The notes under the pieces are model-generated. The model did not search any database, was not told where the DNA came from, and was given only the letters and a program-made list of their open reading frames with translations. From an uncultured SAR86 cluster bacterium (GTDB taxonomy: Bacteria > Pseudomonadota > Gammaproteobacteria > Magnimaribacterales > AG-339-G14), in assembly GCA_902566955.1 (NCBI GenBank), contig CACFKX010000005.1, forward strand, positions 516 to 64,515: a stretch of DNA of 64,000 bases, given 5' to 3'. Shown in pieces: positions 52,596-63,363 of the stretch; positions within the stretch are counted from its first letter, which is position 1, and each line of letters starts with the position of its first letter. The translations under genes were made by a program, and so were the position numbers.

Positions 52596-53507
52596 TTAAA
52601 AATAAGTATTGTGAATCTTAGAATCAATTTTAGACACATTTTTTTGGAGGTTATCTAAAAATAAATGTAGTCTTTTATCATCAAAGTTATGTAGTTTAGA
52701 TTTCTCAGAAATATTGATAATCCTATTTATCATTTGTAGTAACTTTGTATTTTTAGGAAGATTTTTCAAACATGCCTCAATAGTGATTAGACTTCGAAAT
52801 ACTGATCTGGGAAAACTGTCATTCTTAAGTAAAAAAGTTATAACTTCACCCCTGTTCGCTTCTCCTTTTGATTCCTTTCTAAATGCATCTTGAGCAGATA
52901 AAGTTGAGAGCATGCTAATCCATTCCATAGTAGAAAAATCATGAGTTTGTTTAGAACTTTTTGAAATACATAAGCAATCTATAATTCTGGATATCATATC
53001 TGTCCTCTCTATAAATCTACCTAGTCTGATAAATTCAAACTCATAACCTCTAGAGAGATTATCATTTATAGCTCCAAAAAAATTTTGAGTCATCGATACT
53101 ATATTTGTTATATGTTGCAGTTTCCTTCGTTGATGAACTTTAGAAATTTTCTGATCAAGAACATGATCATATAGATGATTCAGACTTACATTTGCAGTTT
53201 TGGGTAAATCATCTTTTATGGTTTCTATATTATATTTAGACATCTCTAAGCAATTATTAAGAGAACTTAGATTTTTTTTATCTTCAAACAAAAAATTTAA
53301 AACATTGTTTTCGTTATAATTTTTATATTTACCCTCAAATAATTCATTAATATCTAAAGTATCAATTAGAGGTTTCCAGTTTAAAGAATGATCGTCAGGA
53401 AAATCTAAAATTAGTTCGAGATTTACATCGATCATTCTTGCAATGTTTTCAACTCTTTCTACGTATCGGGCGAGCCAATACAAATGTTTTGCACTCCTAC
53501 TTAACAT
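52596..53507 (-). CDS. Alpha-E domain protein
   Basis: MLSR.A..LYWLARYVERVEN.AR, LGRFIERTD..SR, FPRS; ATG overlaps the stop of the ATP-grasp gene. Confidence 0.9.
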   Translation of the reverse strand: MLSRSAKHLYWLARYVERVENIARMIDVNLELILDFPDDHSLNWKPLIDTLDINELFEGKYKNYNENNVLNFLFEDKKNLSSLNNCLEMSKYNIETIKDDLPKTANVSLNHLYDHVLDQKISKVHQRRKLQHITNIVSMTQNFFGAINDNLSRGYEFEFIRLGRFIERTDMISRIIDCLCISKSSKQTHDFSTMEWISMLSTLSAQDAFRKESKGEANRGEVITFLLKNDSFPRSVFRSLITIEACLKNLPKNTKLLQMINRIINISEKSKLHNFDDKRLHLFLDNLQKNVSKIDSKIHNTYF

Positions 53508-54946
53508 TATGCATCCACTATCCAAGTATCTTTGCTTCCTCCGCCTTGAGAAGAATTTACAACTGTCGAGCCTCTTTTAAGTGCGACTCTAGTGAGACCT
53601 CCAACTGTCACATAGGTATGCTTACCAGAAAGAATAAATGGTCTCAAATCCAAATGCCTTGGAAATAACGAATCTCTTCTAAATGTTGGCGATGTTGATA
53701 AATCTATTAAAGGTTGAGCAACATAATTTTTAGGATCTTTCATTATTAATCTTTTTAACTTAAGTATTTCTCTTTCGTTTAAGTTTTTACCAATTGATAT
53801 TCCATATCCACCTGACTCTGCCACAGGTTTTGTAACCATTGTTTTAATATTTTCAAATACATAATCTCTTTCATTTTTATTCGCAAGCATGAAAGTTTTT
53901 ATACTTGGAAGTATAGGTTCTTCCTTTAAATAGAAATTAATCATTTCTGGAACATAAGAATAAACAGCTTTATCATCAGCAATACCGCATCCAGGTGCGT
54001 TAACAATAGCTACATTTTTACTCTTCCAGGCTCTTATTAATCCTTTTACCCCAATAACACTAAACGGATTACCTACTTCAGGATCAAGATAGTCATCATC
54101 AATTCTTCTATAAATAACGTCTACCTTTTGAAGTCCTTCGATTGTTTTTTTATAAACTATATTTTTCTTAACGATTAAATCTGAACCTTCGACTAGGTCT
54201 ATCCCCATTTGTTGCGCGAGATATGAATGTTCATAATAAGCCGAGTTATAAATTCCAGGTGTAAGTAGAACAATTTCAGGTCTTTTTAATTTGGATAATG
54301 ATGCTTCCTGTAAGCATTCATATAGTTTAGTGGGATATTCGTCTATCTTAGAAACGCCATAATGTGAAAATAAATCAGGAAAAACTCTTTTCATAACGTA
54401 TCTATTTTCTAGCATATAAGACACTCCAGACGGAACTCTCAAGTTGTCTTCAAGAACATGAAAGTCTCCTTTTATATCTTTTACGAGATCGCTGCCAGAA
54501 ATATGGGCCCAAGATTTATTAGGTAATTTAGTACCCTTACAAAATTTTATAAAATATTTAGATTTTATTATTAATGATTTATCGATGATTCCAGAATTAA
54601 GAAAACTTTGTTCGTTATAACAATCCTCAATAAAATAATTGAGTGCTTTAGTTCTTTGTTTCAGTCCCTTCTCGACAATGTTCCACTCACTTTTTTTTAT
54701 AATTCTAGGAATAAAATCTAAAGGCCATGTTCGTTCTTCAGAACCTTCATCAGAGTAAACTCGAAAATTGATACCCATTGATTTGATGGCAGATTTTGTT
54801 GCGCTATCAAGTTCTTGTAGATCGTTATGTGAAAGAGATTCAAAAAAATTTCCAATTTTTCTTAAGTGACCTCTAACAGTGCGCTTTGGTGTAATATACT
54901 CATCGTACGATTTAGATAGCTCATACTTAGACCATGAAAGTTTCAT
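53507..54946 (-). CDS. Circularly permuted type 2 ATP-grasp protein
   Basis: ER..PLD.IPR.I, LEDNLRVPSGVSY, LTPG.YNSAYYEH, VDVIYRRIDD, GGLTRVAL..GS.VVNSSQGGGSKDTW. Confidence 0.93.
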   Translation of the reverse strand: MKLSWSKYELSKSYDEYITPKRTVRGHLRKIGNFFESLSHNDLQELDSATKSAIKSMGINFRVYSDEGSEERTWPLDFIPRIIKKSEWNIVEKGLKQRTKALNYFIEDCYNEQSFLNSGIIDKSLIIKSKYFIKFCKGTKLPNKSWAHISGSDLVKDIKGDFHVLEDNLRVPSGVSYMLENRYVMKRVFPDLFSHYGVSKIDEYPTKLYECLQEASLSKLKRPEIVLLTPGIYNSAYYEHSYLAQQMGIDLVEGSDLIVKKNIVYKKTIEGLQKVDVIYRRIDDDYLDPEVGNPFSVIGVKGLIRAWKSKNVAIVNAPGCGIADDKAVYSYVPEMINFYLKEEPILPSIKTFMLANKNERDYVFENIKTMVTKPVAESGGYGISIGKNLNEREILKLKRLIMKDPKNYVAQPLIDLSTSPTFRRDSLFPRHLDLRPFILSGKHTYVTVGGLTRVALKRGSTVVNSSQGGGSKDTWIVDA

Positions 54947-55001
54947 TTTGTTATTTACTTATCTCCAATTTATCGAATATAACATCCATTTAGATTAAAA
55001 A

Positions 55002-55739
55002 ATGACCTATTGTTTAGCAATAAAAATAAATAATGGATTAGTATTTGCTTCAGATTCAAGAACTAATGCTGGACTTGATAACATAAGCACATACTCAAAA
55101 ATGTTTACATTTAATGTGGGAGACAGAGCTTTTGTAATTTTAACATCTGGAAATCTTTCTACCTCACAAGCTGTTTATCACAGAATTGAAAAAGATTTAG
55201 ATTCCAAAAACGCAGTAAGAAGCTTAAATACATGCGCAGACATAGAGGAGGTTGCTACTTATATTGGCGAACTAAACGTTGAATATCAATCTAAGACGCA
55301 AGAAAATTTGAATCAGGGATCTGCCATCCTTGGTTCTTATTTTATAGTTGGTGGCCAAATAAAAGGGCAAGATCCAAATCTATTGCTTGTATATCCTGAA
55401 GGAAATTTTATTTATATGTCTGATGATCAACCTTATCTGCAAATCGGAGAGATTAAATACGGTAAACCCATCCTTGATAGAATGATCTATCAAAATATTT
55501 CACTAGGTGATGCGGCTCGTGTCGCTTTACTTTCTTTAGACTCTACAATGAGATCAGATCTAACAGTAGGACCTCCTATTGATTTAGTTGTTTTTAAGAA
55601 AGATGAAATTAATTTGGATTTTCAAGAACAACTTAAACTTGATTCTCCTTTTTTTAAGGAATTATCAGATATTTGGGCTGAACAAATAGATAAAGGCGTT
55701 AGAAAATTGCCTAAGTTTCATTGGGAAAAATTCGATTAA
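55002..55739 (+). CDS. anbu: Proteasome-type NTN protease (Anbu)
   Basis: N-terminal (M)TYC nucleophile, SDSRTNAG.D, SGNL, YPEGN, QIGE.KYGKP.LDR, S.DSTMRS.L.VG.P.D. Confidence 0.9.
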   Translation: MTYCLAIKINNGLVFASDSRTNAGLDNISTYSKMFTFNVGDRAFVILTSGNLSTSQAVYHRIEKDLDSKNAVRSLNTCADIEEVATYIGELNVEYQSKTQENLNQGSAILGSYFIVGGQIKGQDPNLLLVYPEGNFIYMSDDQPYLQIGEIKYGKPILDRMIYQNISLGDAARVALLSLDSTMRSDLTVGPPIDLVVFKKDEINLDFQEQLKLDSPFFKELSDIWAEQIDKGVRKLPKFHWEKFD

Positions 55740-56712: not shown

Positions 56713-57414
56713 ATGAAAAAAATAAAGTTTATATTATTAAGTTTAATCCTCTCTTCCTTAACTTTTGCAAACAACGACGGCCCTGTTGTTGGATATTTTG
56801 GTATTTCTACTGAAGATCCATTAACAGTTCTAAATGCTGCGAATAAGTTAAACAGAGATTGTCCTGCTGCAGGAAGGTTTACTCTTTTAGCTAATACATT
56901 TGATGCAGACGATGAATCAACTCATTTATTTGTTGGCACTTTTGCAAATAATGAAGAATTTATGGATTATTGGAATAGCACAACCTCTTGTGATGGATGG
57001 TCAAAATACTTTTCCAAAACTAATCCTGTAGTGGATGTTACTTTTAATTCAATGGGGATTCCTCTCATGGGCGGAGGAGATCAATTGAAAGATTCAGTTT
57101 TTCAGGCATTTAACATATCTGTAACAGATCCAGCCAAATTTGCTGGAGCTTATGCAGAATTGATGCCTGCACTTGCTGCTGAAGGAATTTGTCCTAGCTC
57201 TTGGGGATTAGTCGCTATCGGAGCAGGTACAAATCCATCTTGGGGAACTCATTTAACATTCTGTGGATATCCTGACATGAAAACTTATCTTGAAGTTTCG
57301 CATAGAAATGCAAAGAGTCCTTCACCCGCATTCATAAACTTTCAATCTAAAGTGCAAGGTGTTGTAACAATTGAAAGGGTCTCTATGAGTACTGTTGTTG
57401 CAAGATTCGATTAA
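56713..57414 (+). CDS. Secreted two-repeat His/Cys protein (paralog 2)
   Basis: Signal peptide, AAGGAG RBS, close similarity to the 57434 ORF (DCP, STH, SC.GW.KYF, GGD.LKD.VF, CP.SWGL, GTH..FCGYPDM). Confidence 0.8.
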   Translation: MKKIKFILLSLILSSLTFANNDGPVVGYFGISTEDPLTVLNAANKLNRDCPAAGRFTLLANTFDADDESTHLFVGTFANNEEFMDYWNSTTSCDGWSKYFSKTNPVVDVTFNSMGIPLMGGGDQLKDSVFQAFNISVTDPAKFAGAYAELMPALAAEGICPSSWGLVAIGAGTNPSWGTHLTFCGYPDMKTYLEVSHRNAKSPSPAFINFQSKVQGVVTIERVSMSTVVARFD

Positions 57415-57433
57415 TTTAATTGGAGAATAAAAA

Positions 57434-58129
57434 ATGAAAAAAATATTATGTTTTGCACTTTTTTTTAGTTTGTCCAATGTTTGGGCAGCTGATGGTCCTT
57501 TCTTTGGTTTTTTTGGTATAGAAACAGATAATCCTTTAGGAGTTTTGTCAGCTACAGATAAACTCTCGCAAGATTGTCCTGGAGGATCAGCTGTAGTCAG
57601 ATTAATGGCCGAAAACTTTAATGCAGATGAAGTCACTACTCACTCTTATGCAGTATTATTTGAAAATAATGAGTCATATTTGCAGTGGAGTGGACAATGG
57701 GCTTCTTGTCCTGGCTGGACAAAATACTTTCAAACTATGTCTGAAATATCTAATTCGACATATGAAATGTTAGCCTTTCCGGTTGTTTCCGGCGGTGATA
57801 CATTAAAAGACAAAGTTTTTGTTTCTTGGATTATGGATGTATCTGATCCAGCTGCTTATGCAAAAGCTTATTCTGAACTTATGAATAGTGCGGATAGTCG
57901 CTGTCCAGGTTCATGGGGATTAGCAGCTTGGGGTCCGGGATCAAGAGTAGAAAGCTATGGAACTCATATGGCTTTCTGTGGTTATCCAGATATGGCTTCA
58001 GCTATGGAAGTATTTCAAGAAAGAATGCCTACAAAATCTATGCAGAAATTTTATTCTAAAGCTGGAAATGTCAGGCAACTTATTGGAACTAACTTAGTCA
58101 CGATAATAAAAGACTATATGCCAAACTAA
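57434..58129 (+). CDS. Secreted two-repeat His/Cys protein (paralog 3)
   Basis: Signal peptide (VWA-A), GGAG RBS, tandem paralog of the 56713 ORF. Confidence 0.8.
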   Translation: MKKILCFALFFSLSNVWAADGPFFGFFGIETDNPLGVLSATDKLSQDCPGGSAVVRLMAENFNADEVTTHSYAVLFENNESYLQWSGQWASCPGWTKYFQTMSEISNSTYEMLAFPVVSGGDTLKDKVFVSWIMDVSDPAAYAKAYSELMNSADSRCPGSWGLAAWGPGSRVESYGTHMAFCGYPDMASAMEVFQERMPTKSMQKFYSKAGNVRQLIGTNLVTIIKDYMPN

Positions 58130-58223
58130 AAAAATGAGCTATACGATTTAATCGTAATATTTTCTATTATTATTCAATTTAGTAAAAACATTGATGTATA
58201 TTGGTAATATTTAAGGAGAGAAT

Positions 58224-58931
58224 ATGAAAAAATTATTATTATTAATTTTTATATCTTCTGGATTTATCTATGCGCAAAGTGAAAGGCATGTAATGCATGT
58301 TTTCTATCATATGAATGTAACGAATCCAGCAGGTGTAATTTCAGCTTTGGATAAGTTTCATGCATCTGATTGCGGTAAGAAATTTCCAGGCGACTTAGGG
58401 TTAATGTCTGAAACACTTAATGGAGCAAGTGACTCTACGCATTTTATTATTGCCTCTTATATGACAAGAGAGGACTTTCAAAATGCAGGCGCATTAACAC
58501 AAAGCTGTCCAGAAGCTGCCACAATGCTTGGTTCTTTAATGAGTTCAGCGAGTCCAGTAACAGATCTTGCAATTATTCCTATCATTGAAGCCAATGATTG
58601 GACTATTGATGGTGCATTCACTAAATATGACATGAGAATGAATCTAGAAAATGAGGAAGAGTACGCCAAGGCATGGTCAGAACTAATGGAATCTAATGTT
58701 GAATCAGGATCTGTTACAAGCTCTTATGGATTAAACAGAGTTCTATATGGCAATGATGAATTTACACACTTTGTTTATATCGGAGCTTCTGATTTTGTAA
58801 CTTTGACAGATGGGGCTACAGAATTAACATCATCAAAGGCTTTTGAAAAATTTTCAAGGAAAGTAAAAGGGATGAGAGAAGTATTAAATACTTCTTTGGT
58901 AATTCCTGTCAAAGCCTGGCCGAGAAGATAA
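58224..58931 (+). CDS. Secreted two-repeat His/Cys protein (paralog 4)
   Basis: Signal peptide (IYA-Q), AAGGAG RBS, STH and FTH motifs, Cys pair. Confidence 0.8.
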   Translation: MKKLLLLIFISSGFIYAQSERHVMHVFYHMNVTNPAGVISALDKFHASDCGKKFPGDLGLMSETLNGASDSTHFIIASYMTREDFQNAGALTQSCPEAATMLGSLMSSASPVTDLAIIPIIEANDWTIDGAFTKYDMRMNLENEEEYAKAWSELMESNVESGSVTSSYGLNRVLYGNDEFTHFVYIGASDFVTLTDGATELTSSKAFEKFSRKVKGMREVLNTSLVIPVKAWPRR

Positions 58932-60639: not shown

Positions 60640-62412
60640 ATGGATATCAATCAAATCATCCTTTCAGCCGTACTCTTGGTTATGGTTGTTATGTTTATCT
60701 GGGGCAGATTTCGATACGATGCAGTAGCATTAACAAGTCTTGCAGTTTTAGTGATTCTTGGTTTTGTTCCAGCTAAAGAAGCATTTGTAGGGTTTGGACA
60801 TCCCGCAGTAATAACAGTTGCGCTTGTTTTATTGATTAGTAAAGGCCTAGAAGCATCAGGATTGATAGGGAAAATTGGCAATCTATTACAGAAAATTGCT
60901 AATAGTGAATTTCAGTTCTTAGTCATATTGATGGGTATTGCAGTCATACTATCTTCTTTTATGAATAACATTGGTGCTATGGCGATGTTATTACCTGTAA
61001 CTTTGGGTATATGTCAGAAAATGGGCTGGTCCCCTTCTAAATTTTTAATGCCTCTTGCCTTCGCATCAATTCTTGGGGGTATGAATACAAAAATTGGAAC
61101 GCCTCCAAATATTATTATTTCCGAATTTAGGGACCAATATTCCGATCAAGGGTTCGAATTTTTTGATTTTGCCTATGCAGGGTTGCCTGTGAGTATCGGA
61201 GGCGTAATTTTTATCGCATTACTTGGTTTCATTCCTGTTAAAAATAGATCTGGTGACAGTGATTCATCTTCTTTAGTTGATATTAATGAATATTTAGTTG
61301 AACTTGTGATTGATAAAGATAGCGATCTTATAGGTAAAAAAACTCAAGAATTCAGGAAGGAACTAGGTTCTGACACAGTACTCATAGGTTCAGTAAATGA
61401 AACATCTGATGCCAGGGAAATTTTAAGTAATTTTGAGGAATTGAAAGAATCTCAAATTCTACTTTTGAAAATAAATCCAGAGGAAGTATCAGGACTACAA
61501 GATAAGTATGGTCTTTCTCTCAGAACCGAAATTAAAGATCTTGATTCAGGAAGCTTTGGTGAAATTGAAACCATGATTTCTCCAGGGTCAAGATTAATAG
61601 GTAGAACTATAAGCTATTTTTCAAATATGGTTGGGAGACAGATGGCTGTTCTTGGGTTGTGGAGGAAAGGTACAAATTTTCAAGGAAGCCTTTCAAACGA
61701 ACATTTCAAGGCTGGAGATGTGTTGTTGATTGCTACTAGAGAAGAACAAAAAGATACCAGTGATAAAATGCAAGATCTTGGTTTGATGCCTCTTTGGCAA
61801 AGAGAGTTAGATGTAATAAAGGATGATTCTAAAGTTTTACTTTCATTAGGGTTATTTTCTTTTAGTTTACTTTTGGTTATCACAAATTTTTTAAATGTCG
61901 TCATAGCATTTTTACTATGCGTTTTAGCATTTGTTGCGTCTAAACTACTAAAACCAAATATGCTTTATCGTCATATTGAATGGCCTGTTATTGTATTGCT
62001 TGGAGCTATGATTCCTATAGGCGATGCACTATATGACAGTGGTCTTACAAATATATTAGCAACCGTAATAGCGACTCAATCTATTCAATTTGGTCTAGTT
62101 GCAACCCTTGTTATTTTGATGGTAGCCACAATGTGTCTATCTGATGTCATTAATAATGCAGCGACTGCAGTTATTATGGGACCTATATCAGTCACAATTG
62201 CAAATCAGTTAGGTCATCCTTCTGAACCATTTTTGATGTGTGTTGCAATTGGTGCAAGCTGTGCTTTTTTATCTCCTATCGGACATCAATGTAACACTTT
62301 GGTAATGGGACCAGGTAATTATAAATTTGGAGATTATTGGAAATTAGGTCTACCATTAGAATTACTCATAATAGCCATTTCAACACCATTGCTCCTGATA
62401 TTTTGGTTTTAA
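60640..62412 (+). CDS. SLC13/DASS family permease with TrkA-C domains
   Basis: GFGHPAV, SSFMNN, GTPPN, two soluble RCK-C-like repeats, INNAA, SPIGHQCN..VMGPG.Y.F.DY. Confidence 0.88.
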   Translation: MDINQIILSAVLLVMVVMFIWGRFRYDAVALTSLAVLVILGFVPAKEAFVGFGHPAVITVALVLLISKGLEASGLIGKIGNLLQKIANSEFQFLVILMGIAVILSSFMNNIGAMAMLLPVTLGICQKMGWSPSKFLMPLAFASILGGMNTKIGTPPNIIISEFRDQYSDQGFEFFDFAYAGLPVSIGGVIFIALLGFIPVKNRSGDSDSSSLVDINEYLVELVIDKDSDLIGKKTQEFRKELGSDTVLIGSVNETSDAREILSNFEELKESQILLLKINPEEVSGLQDKYGLSLRTEIKDLDSGSFGEIETMISPGSRLIGRTISYFSNMVGRQMAVLGLWRKGTNFQGSLSNEHFKAGDVLLIATREEQKDTSDKMQDLGLMPLWQRELDVIKDDSKVLLSLGLFSFSLLLVITNFLNVVIAFLLCVLAFVASKLLKPNMLYRHIEWPVIVLLGAMIPIGDALYDSGLTNILATVIATQSIQFGLVATLVILMVATMCLSDVINNAATAVIMGPISVTIANQLGHPSEPFLMCVAIGASCAFLSPIGHQCNTLVMGPGNYKFGDYWKLGLPLELLIIAISTPLLLIFWF

Positions 62413-62651
62413 TTGCCCTGAATAATTGTCCCTCTCATAAAAAGTTCATAATAACGAGAACAATTATAATTTCTTAACTCTATGAGCATATTTAGATACT
62501 TCTGTTTATCGGAGTCTAGGACGGATTTATGATCTAAATAACATGCATCAAACTCATCTAAATCATACATAGAGTTCTTAATTACCTTTTGATAGGTGCA
62601 TGAAGATAAAGATAATAATAGAAAAAGGATCAGAAAATTATTGATTCTCAT
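62409..62651 (-). CDS. Small hypothetical lipoprotein
   Basis: LSSC lipobox; start overlaps the 3' end of the ion channel gene. Confidence 0.55.
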   Translation of the reverse strand: MRINNFLILFLLLSLSSCTYQKVIKNSMYDLDEFDACYLDHKSVLDSDKQKYLNMLIELRNYNCSRYYELFMRGTIIQGN

Positions 62652-63363
62652 CTGCACTTAATTGGCCGCTGCTAGATTTCTTAGACATAACATCAACAAT
62701 GATACCAATGACCATATTCAACATGATTACGGCATTAAGAAGAATGAAACTAATAAAGTAAATCCATACCCAAGGAAAAACTTCAATTATATCTTTCATA
62801 ACTGCAGCCCAGTCGTCGTATGTAGCAACTTGTGCAAGGGTAAGCATAGCAAGACCAATATTACCCCAATGTTCTGGATCTGTTGTTCCAAAAACTAAAG
62901 TTCCTATAGCAGCCCATATATATATGAAAATGAACATTAGAAGAGCCACAAAACCAACTCTTGGAAGCGTTTCAAACAACGCATCGACAATTTTCTTCAA
63001 TGCAGGCACTACGGTGATAATTCTTAATACCCTGACAATTCTGAGTAATCTTGCAACGAATGCTGTCTCTCCTCCAGTGATTGGAATTAAACTGACCGTA
63101 ACGATGATGAAATCAAAGACGTTCCAACCACCTTTAAAGAATTTTATCAGTGATCTTTCTGCAACTATTCTGATAATAATCTCTACTAGGAAGAAAACTG
63201 TTATTGCGGTATCAAGAAAATTTAGCAATCCAACGTATTCTTCCGAAAGGTCGTAGGAACTGACTCCGGCATAAATAGCAGAGCCAATTATTACAAAAAT
63301 TACTATTCCATTAAAAAAGCGACTATTTCTGATTTTTAGAAAAAATTGGACTATTTGATTCAT
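62638..63363 (-). CDS. BacNav-family voltage-gated cation channel (6TM)
   Basis: S2 E...R, S3 WNVFDF, S4 RLLRIVRVLR, pore filter TYDDW, S6 LNMVIGIIV. Confidence 0.92.
   Translation of the reverse strand: MNQIVQFFLKIRNSRFFNGIVIFVIIGSAIYAGVSSYDLSEEYVGLLNFLDTAITVFFLVEIIIRIVAERSLIKFFKGGWNVFDFIIVTVSLIPITGGETAFVARLLRIVRVLRIITVVPALKKIVDALFETLPRVGFVALLMFIFIYIWAAIGTLVFGTTDPEHWGNIGLAMLTLAQVATYDDWAAVMKDIIEVFPWVWIYFISFILLNAVIMLNMVIGIIVDVMSKKSSSGQLSADENQ

Follow-up and report, generated by a model that had tools for sequence, protein, structure and literature searches.

We analysed a 64,000-nucleotide stretch of an uncultured SAR86 cluster genome (assembly GCA_902566955.1, contig CACFKX010000005.1; this whole stretch is hereafter the window) and found, at 62638..63363 on its minus strand, an intact ion channel gene with the selectivity filter T181-Y-D-D-W-A-A187. 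The gene product is a one-domain voltage-gated cation channel of the bacterial voltage-gated sodium channel (BacNav) superfamily. The TYDDW filter and its clade are what is new here, and they are a conserved variant of a known channel family. By analogy with characterised channels, the protein may be a Ca2+-permeable channel that binds divalent cations, with a Ca2+-to-Na+ permeability ratio (PCa/PNa) above 1, a reading to which we give about an even chance.

Architecture of the channel and its filter

The channel gene was the sole long frame at its locus in the open reading frame (ORF) listing. The copy in the host genome matched it at 100% with 0 internal stops, and there is no longer form of the ORF, because in that genome the open frame spans just 246 codons. 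Against Pfam, the product matched Ion_trans (PF00520) with an E-value of 1e-42, residues 15-230 aligning to profile positions 2-237 of 241. NCBIfam profiles gave one sub-threshold match to a K-channel profile (22.9 bits, cut-off 300). The features of the gene are as follows.

62638..63363, minus strand: complete channel ORF, ATG start, 241 aa plus stop (ORF listing and Ion_trans match)
63010..63321, minus strand: voltage-sensing domain, residues ~15-118 (helix limits from the AlphaFold2 model)
within 63010..63321, minus strand: helices S1 (15-34), S2 (41-68), S3 (72-91) and S4 (101-118) (AlphaFold2 model)
63010..63063, minus strand: S4 helix, residues 101-118, with R105, R108, R111 and R114 (sequence and clade alignment)
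62674..62970, minus strand: pore module, residues ~132-230, comprising S5, P1 (169-180), filter, P2 (185-193) and S6 (199-230) (model helices)
62803..62823, minus strand: selectivity filter T181-Y-D-D-W-A-A187 (coordinates from the translation; conserved in homologues)
62641..62673, minus strand: cytoplasmic tail, residues 231-241, with no coiled coil (NavAb/CavAb alignments and model)

We utilised AlphaFold2 to model the channel monomer from a 41-sequence alignment. The model (predicted local distance difference test, pLDDT, 80) placed S1-S4, the linker, S5, P1, P2 and S6 in the expected order. Its top Foldseek matches in the PDB were CavAb (5klb; query TM-score, TMq, 0.83), NavRh (4dxw, 42% identity), NavAb and NaChBac (6vwx, 41%), with TMq values of 0.8-0.85 to NavAb, CavAb and NaChBac. 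By sequence, the closest single-domain solved relative was NavRh (phmmer 3.5e-62, 42% identity); T-type Ca2+ channels rank above it because the scores of their four domains add up. The pore segment by itself matched NavRh at 9e-18, as well as NavAb, NaChBac and Cav domains.

In S4, the arginines R105, R108, R111 and R114 are spaced at every third position, and the S4 string FVARLLRIVRVLRIIT is conserved across the clade. Together with E61, N81 and D84, the four arginines were invariant in the 41-sequence alignment, which reaches down to 34% identity. T181 and W185 were nearly invariant in the same alignment, in a T-x-x-x-W P-loop between two pore helices. The NavAb and CavAb chain alignments stop at query residue 228-229 and the confidence of the model S6 drops after ~230, leaving a tail of 11-13 residues that is unconserved in the clade alignment. 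NavRh has the same short format, without a coiled-coil tail, and its filter-to-P2 spacing aligns gap-free with ours. The relatives with the filter TFEDWTD are longer (260-294 aa), and the TYDDW channel is ~35-45 residues shorter at its C terminus than these and the other NavPp-type channels. The first-pass annotation had described a natural BacNav-type channel whose voltage sensor is intact (four S4 arginines) and which has almost no cytoplasmic coiled-coil tail. The Ion_trans match, the BacNav pore fold, the complete ORF, the invariant arginines and the short tail all bear this out, and the residue and nucleotide positions that it gave for the filter proved exact.

A four-copy model scored 0.70, compared with 0.00 for the best of 3 controls, although this pass may reflect only likeness to BacNav tetramers that have already been solved. 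Among proteins of solved structure, 20 of 30 pairs and 1 of 23 single chains attained the score mark used. Three runs shared at least 92% of contacts with a partner pLDDT of at least 74. The contacts between copies involved filter, S5 and S6 residues, including T181-W185 and the S4-S5 linker to S5.

We analysed the conservation of the filter among relatives of the channel. A word-based search returned 2,992 homologues, 120 of them listed at 59-99% identity to the query. Among the matches listed, all 120 metagenomic relatives carried YDDW (119 TYDDW and 1 PYDDW). In a 130-row clade alignment, filter position 6 was A or G and position 7 was A in 95 rows, N in 19 and M in 16; across clade rows and xDDW genes of the host order, position 7 was A, N, M or T and never acidic. 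The channel thus lacks the third acidic residue of the engineered Ca2+-selective filters, as the annotation had noted. Across the 130 sequences, 84 of 241 columns were at least 99% conserved. The aligned sequences identify YDDW as a signature of the clade, not a one-off.

Within the host order, both Asp residues were fixed in 74 of 74 genes with an xDDW filter (TYDDW or TFDDW), while codons differed at every filter position: D183 was GAC in 17 genes and GAT in 57, D184 was GAT in 42 and GAC in 32, T181 was ACC, ACT or ACA, and Y182 was TAC in 38 and TAT in 34. Judged from these genes, purifying selection acts on the DDW motif. At position 2, the Tyr had been called unusual; the residue is indeed there, but as Phe plus a hydroxyl it is a conservative change from the Phe of neighbouring clades, and two genomes within the clade carry TFDDW.

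Transcript-derived data also contained the gene. In RNA libraries, 20 runs from 16 studies held 22-43% of the sampled words of the channel gene, and contigs of 4 metatranscriptome runs (4 studies), with an identity of at least 90%, spanned most of the ORF; an example is a match of 378 nt with 1 difference. This evidence consists of assembled contigs in which DNA carry-over is possible, and it speaks to presence only, not to transcript ends or levels. Scans at the channel for promoters (4 promoter-like sites, 7.2 expected from shuffles) and terminators (1 terminator-like site, 0.8 expected) were uninformative.

Distribution and phylogenetic placement

Subsequently, we searched the host order for the channel. 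A match was present in 90 of 266 species-level genomes, always exactly one each and with no internal stop in any of the 90; among high-quality genomes the figure was 18 of 57, and among genera 12 of 22. The gene was found in 15 of 15 other genomes of the host genus and 14 of 17 of its sister genus, and in 0 of 8 and 0 of 9 genomes of two further genera of the host family. The filter could be read in 88 of the 90 genomes, two matches stopping short of it: 72 carried TYDDW, 2 TFDDW, 7 TLSSW, 2 TMSSW, 4 TLEGW(PD) and 1 TVSGW. Surveyed for TxDDW homologues, the order therefore yielded xDDW in 74 of 88 channels. Three one-domain lineages were present, one per genome: xDDW (74), CavMr-like TLEGWPD (4) and NavRh-like T[LMV]S[SG]WE (10). 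The 90%-identity cluster of the channel had 350 member sequences.

Genomes of the order measure 0.7-1.7 Mb; the host assembly is 1.03 Mb and 74% complete, and the window has a G+C content of 33%. The host genome encodes rhodopsin, and none of 16 genomes of the host genus had a flagellin match. A gene of the Na_Ca_ex family was present in 13 of these 16 genomes, but it is not specific, because 11 of 14 control genomes carry such genes too.

We examined membership of CatSper and rejected it, as CatSper is a eukaryotic heterotetramer in which four distinct subunits join with auxiliary proteins, whereas the host here is bacterial with one match per genome (90 of 90).

We then placed the clade with two trees. 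Tree 1, a quick IQ-TREE run of 116 rows, included 18 of the 120 metagenomic matches, 78 of the 80 genome loci and 19 single-domain representatives, and omitted loci L001, L010 and L051 as duplicate or too short. The representatives were drawn from the best 150 of 13,820 homologues. Most of these 150 were multi-domain eukaryotic channels, which left 19 single-domain rows for use, and the list did not include the representative of the clade itself. Tree 2 held 104 rows of the order's own genes, with ten near-identical copies from the genus and three short matches dropped. Both trees came from short searches, were rooted at the midpoint and contained several long branches, and sequences of CavMr, NavPp, Halomonas elongata and T. 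turnerae were absent from them.

In tree 1, the 28 TYDDW rows were monophyletic (Shimodaira-Hasegawa-like approximate likelihood ratio test, SH-aLRT, 100; stem 0.67). They lay within an 89-row set (99) alongside TFEDWTD, TFESW and TLSSW channels, apart from the TLESW rows of Bacillus and SAR116 and the TLEGW rows of Bacteroidota. The split between the xDDW clade and the Bacillus and SAR116 TLESW rows had SH-aLRT values of 98-99 in these quick, midpoint-rooted trees. In tree 2, the xDDW clade had a support of 100 and a stem of 0.85, with TFDDW nested within it. Its sub-clades matched host families (f3, 12 rows, support 93; f1, 17 rows, 85; f2, 32 rows, 95), a pattern that fits vertical descent with later losses. 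The T-Y-D-D-W filter predates the split of three families of the order and has stayed unchanged.

The TLEGWPD channels found in the host order formed the sister group of the xDDW clade (support 90-91), and the TLSSWE group of the order was a separate lineage (97). This last group is of the NavRh type, so that channels of both kinds occur in one order. NavRh, which we take to come from the marine alphaproteobacterium HIMB114, differs from the TYDDW channel in its filter, TLSSWE, which has no acidic residue at positions 3-4 and a Glu at position 6. The nearest large clade was that of the gammaproteobacterial TFEDWTD channels (45-50% identity), on the same side of the 98-99 split. Alignments showed one extra residue after the Trp in TLESWASG and TFESWATA channels and none in TYDDW, TFEDWTD, TLEGWTD or NavRh.

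The placement near the 'ancestor-like' group of Shimomura 2020 rests on the Halomonadaceae TFEDWTD rows, because one gene in the set of that study, from Halomonas elongata, has a NavPp-like filter. Compared with the AnclNav channels of Shimomura 2020, the TYDDW filter has one more acidic residue (D184) than canonical BacNavs and a non-acidic position 7 in place of the typical AnclNav Asp. The canonical Na+-selective BacNavs of the NaChBac and NavAb groups differ in carrying TLESW and in their phylogenetic placement.

Two further kinds of protein were noted in the metagenomic set. P0230 (250 aa; 36% identity to the query) has an Asp-Asp filter, TFDDWAK, and falls outside the clade, where its branch is very long. 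P0143, P0145, P0156 and ~40 more, ~730-1260 aa in length, contain 3-4 stretches that match query residues ~12-189 at 33-38% identity and may be compact multi-domain or two-pore-type channels.

Ion selectivity of the TYDDW channel

The reading that we favour is that of a depolarisation-activated, homotetrameric, one-domain channel permeable to Ca2+. D183 and D184 of the four subunits would together supply eight carboxylates, stacked as two rings where the pore is narrowest, with the backbone carbonyls of T181 and Y182 beneath them. Such double Asp rings would make a strong divalent-cation site, so that Ca2+ would pass with a PCa/PNa that exceeds 1 but is probably moderate; monovalent ions would be poorly discriminated, and the channel would not be Na+-selective. 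Upon opening in seawater, it would carry an inward current made up largely of Ca2+ and shaped by Ca2+ and Mg2+ occupancy of the filter. The missing position-7 Asp and the hydroxyl of the position-2 Tyr would argue against selectivity as extreme as that of CavAb. A likely role would be a voltage-to-Ca2+ signal or depolarisation-triggered cation entry, not motility control, considering the non-flagellate host genus, its rhodopsin and its Na+/Ca2+-exchanger-family gene.

The analogy draws on published permeabilities. In NaChBac, PCa/PNa was 0.15 for the wild-type LESWAS, 17 for LESWAD, 35 for LEDWAS, 73 for LEDWAD and 133 for LDDWAD (Yue 2002, PMC2229573, Table I). The statement of the first-pass annotation that Asp substitutions confer Ca2+ preference therefore holds for NaChBac, with a rise from 0.15 to 35 for Asp at position 4 and to 133 for three Asp. 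The change of NavAb TLESWSM to TLEDWSM brought a ~100-fold rise, as summarised in Spafford 2023. Asp at position 3 gave non-selective Na+/Ca2+ channels in NsvBa (TLDSWGS) and the diatom OsEukCatA1 (TLDAWAD), which resemble the TYDDW channel in having Asp, not Glu, at this position but differ in their neutral position 4 and in their lineages. CavMr (TLEGWVD) has a PCa/PNa of 218 (review PMC8677417), which depends on the Gly at position 4 and drops to 7.7 in CavMr-G4D (Shimomura 2020, PMC7041947).

The suggestion that the protein may be a natural Ca2+-selective or non-selective channel stood in part. The Asp-Asp filter is natural and conserved, but the step from a DDW filter to Ca2+ selectivity is not secured, because it assumes a NaChBac/NavAb-like backbone and a well-supported split separates the clade from such channels. 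By the analogies available, a non-selective channel would be just as probable as a Ca2+-selective one, and a Ca2+-blocked Na+ current would be a serious rival.

Several points weigh against Ca2+ permeability. In the sequence trees the clade groups with TFEDWTD channels, away from NaChBac-like ones, and in the ancestor-like group, NavPp included, an Asp at position 4 goes with Na+ preference and Ca2+ block. The channel lacks the third acidic residue that all strongly Ca2+-selective engineered filters carry, and the combination LDDWAS is not among the mutants of Yue 2002 (PMC2229573). The homologues of H. elongata and T. turnerae, which have NavPp-like filters, gave no currents in Sf9 cells (PMC7041947).

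Data from NavPp and from position 2 of NavAb add to these points and also feed the alternative that survives best, which we nevertheless consider rather unlikely. Here Na+ would be the main permeant ion (PCa/PNa below 1), with the DD ring and the Tyr hydroxyl acting as a blocking site for divalent cations. Seawater contains ~10 mM Ca2+ and ~50 mM Mg2+, and Na+ entry would be strongly damped in it. At the 98-99 split the clade falls with the TFEDWTD channels, and with NavPp-type filters (TLEDWTD/TFEDWTD) it shares the Asp at position 4, the lack of an extra residue after the Trp and, in the case of TFEDWTD, an aromatic position 2. NavPp (TLEDWTD) has a PCa/PNa of 0.31 with Ca2+ block, and NavPp-T6A (TLEDWAD), identical to TYDDWAA at position 6, passed no inward current in divalent solutions (PMC7041947). 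In NavAb, the hydrophilic or small position-2 substitutions L176Q/N/T/A/G create divalent block (Irie 2023). On the other side, the NavPp filter is not reproduced here, because Asp replaces Glu at position 3 and a non-acidic residue stands at position 7 (Ala-Ala at positions 6-7 in place of Thr-Asp). NavPp-T6V reached a PCa/PNa of 1.7, and TLEDWVD mutants on the ancestor-like backbone were Ca2+-permeable at 1.7-7.7 (PMC7041947). NavAb L176F showed no block (Irie 2023), Tyr lying outside the tested set.

Ca2+ permeability may also take a far stronger form, a subset of our preferred reading that we hold to be doubtful. With a PCa/PNa of tens to hundreds, the protein would be a second native prokaryotic Cav, selective through charge density and not through the CavMr Gly-4, and strongly Ca2+-selective xDDW channels with two Asp rings and no outer Asp would be fixed in several genera of the order. 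The NaChBac values for LEDWAS and LDDWAD favour this, as does the scheme of Spafford 2023, which calls one-domain channels with Asp at position 4 Ca2+-selective and lists CatSper1 among them. The filter has 8 charges per tetramer, equal to the number that Shimomura gives for CavMr; both are one-domain channels, and the CavMr-like TLEGWPD channels are the sister group in the same order. Unlike CavMr, with Gly at position 4 and Asp at position 7, the TYDDW channel has Asp-4 and no position-7 Asp, and position 7 was acidic in 0 of 130 clade rows. In the ancestor-like backbone, moreover, added Asp lowers selectivity (PMC7041947). The engineered CaChBac (TLDDWAD) and CavAb (TLDDWSD) share the Asp-Asp-Trp core, and CavAb is the top structural match, but they were built on NaChBac and NavAb backbones with Leu at position 2 and a third Asp at position 7, giving 12 filter charges per tetramer instead of 8. 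The resemblance is one of mechanism only, not of membership.

An ordinary Na+-selective BacNav, in which the filter change has no functional consequence, is improbable. JGI labels clade members 'voltage-gated sodium channel' and the closest solved relative, NavRh, is titled a sodium channel, yet the JGI name is an automatic family label, each published Ser-to-Asp swap at position 4 in the sources available altered selectivity, and Asp at position 3 yields non-selective channels. That the gene is a remnant, decaying or non-conducting, of a streamlined genome can practically be dismissed: this would fit the patchy spread (90 of 266 genomes, 18 of 57 high-quality ones) and the missing C-terminal assembly domain, against which stand 0 internal stops in 90 matches, the 84 conserved columns, synonymous turnover at invariant residues, retention in 15 of 15 genomes of the genus, and NavRh, which is equally short (229 aa in its PDB entry), was crystallised and has four chains in the entry.

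The filter also matters for models of selectivity. Two conflicting models exist for Ca2+ selectivity in four-fold symmetric channels, one based on charge number (CaChBac, CavAb) and the other on Gly-4 in a given backbone (CavMr, NavPp). A filter that is naturally Asp-Asp but lacks the outer Asp, on the ancestor-like side, is a case outside the tests of both, and its permeability would discriminate between them. If selectivity for Ca2+ is strong, TYDDWAA, TLEGWPD and TLSSWET would form a natural mutagenesis series, on related backbones, for Na+/Ca2+ switching in homotetramers, and an abundant, non-motile, rhodopsin-bearing ocean order would be the host of strongly Ca2+-selective xDDW channels. 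The gene is common (a 350-member cluster and 74 of 266 order genomes), so its conductance is part of the physiology of widespread ocean bacteria. Arithmetic from assumed values (1 pA of Ca2+ for 1 ms into 0.05 cubic micrometres, unbuffered) gives a rise of ~100 micromolar, which would make a single opening a large event in very small cells.

The idea of natural Ca2+ channels in this family is old, since Yue 2002 (PMC2229573) already pointed to FEDWTD homologues as candidate native Ca2+ channels. In the literature searched, which included the topics SAR86 with voltage-gated channels and BacNaV filters with metagenomes (titles and the starts of abstracts), we found no prior characterisation of TYDDW channels. 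The string 'TYDDW' did not occur in it, supplementary sequence lists, which may include such filters, lying outside the search. The examined parts of the 'AnclNav' literature do not describe a TYDDW filter.

Neighbouring genes and other observations

No conserved gene neighbour of the channel was found among the compared loci of the order. The genes around it and a group further along the window are as follows.

62409-62657, minus strand: ORF of 82 aa with a lipoprotein-like start (hydrophobic stretch, then LSSC) and no Pfam or NCBIfam match
60640-62412, plus strand: CitMHS / Na_sulph_symp permease with an internal TrkA_C, 590 aa (domain matches)
63396 to beyond the window end (L001 2256-3578), minus strand: upstream same-strand gene, 440 aa, with a weak TPR_19 match (7e-06)
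52596-53525, minus strand: Alpha-E domain gene
53507-54946, minus strand: circularly permuted ATP-grasp gene
55002-55739, plus strand: proteasome-subunit-like gene

The 82-aa ORF overlaps the 3' end of the channel by 14-20 nt and was present at 78-100% identity, in an equivalent position, in 11 of 11 loci of the host genus with flanks. It was rejected as a conserved operon partner, as it occurred in 0 of 9 loci of other genera. The 440-aa gene ends 32 nt before the channel start codon and was not found next to the channel in other genera.

We also considered the permease as a partner of the channel. In many genomes of three families the two genes lay 0.1-20 kb apart, the full span of distances being 83 bp to 174 kb, and in the window they are on opposite strands. 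The two genes occurred independently (permease in 164 of 266 genomes, channel in 90 of 266), and the permease was rejected on this ground. Two genera had the permease (g6, 10 of 11 genomes; g7, 7 of 7) and 0 channels, and two others lacked it (g21, 0 of 25; g22, 0 of 30) and had 9 and 3 channels.

A second ion channel gene lies ~5 kb past the end of the window (L083 1108-2121, minus strand; G000:C5:68568-69158 region). Its 337-aa product has a K+-type filter, TTVGYGD, with matches to Ion_trans_2 (4.7e-16) and a C-terminal cNMP_binding domain (1.3e-14). At 56713-58931 on the plus strand, three consecutive ORFs of 233, 231 and 235 aa had no Pfam match and may be paralogues. Finally, the Alpha-E, ATP-grasp and proteasome-like genes at 52596-55739 form a grouping that we take to resemble a bacterial Anbu-type proteasome cluster.

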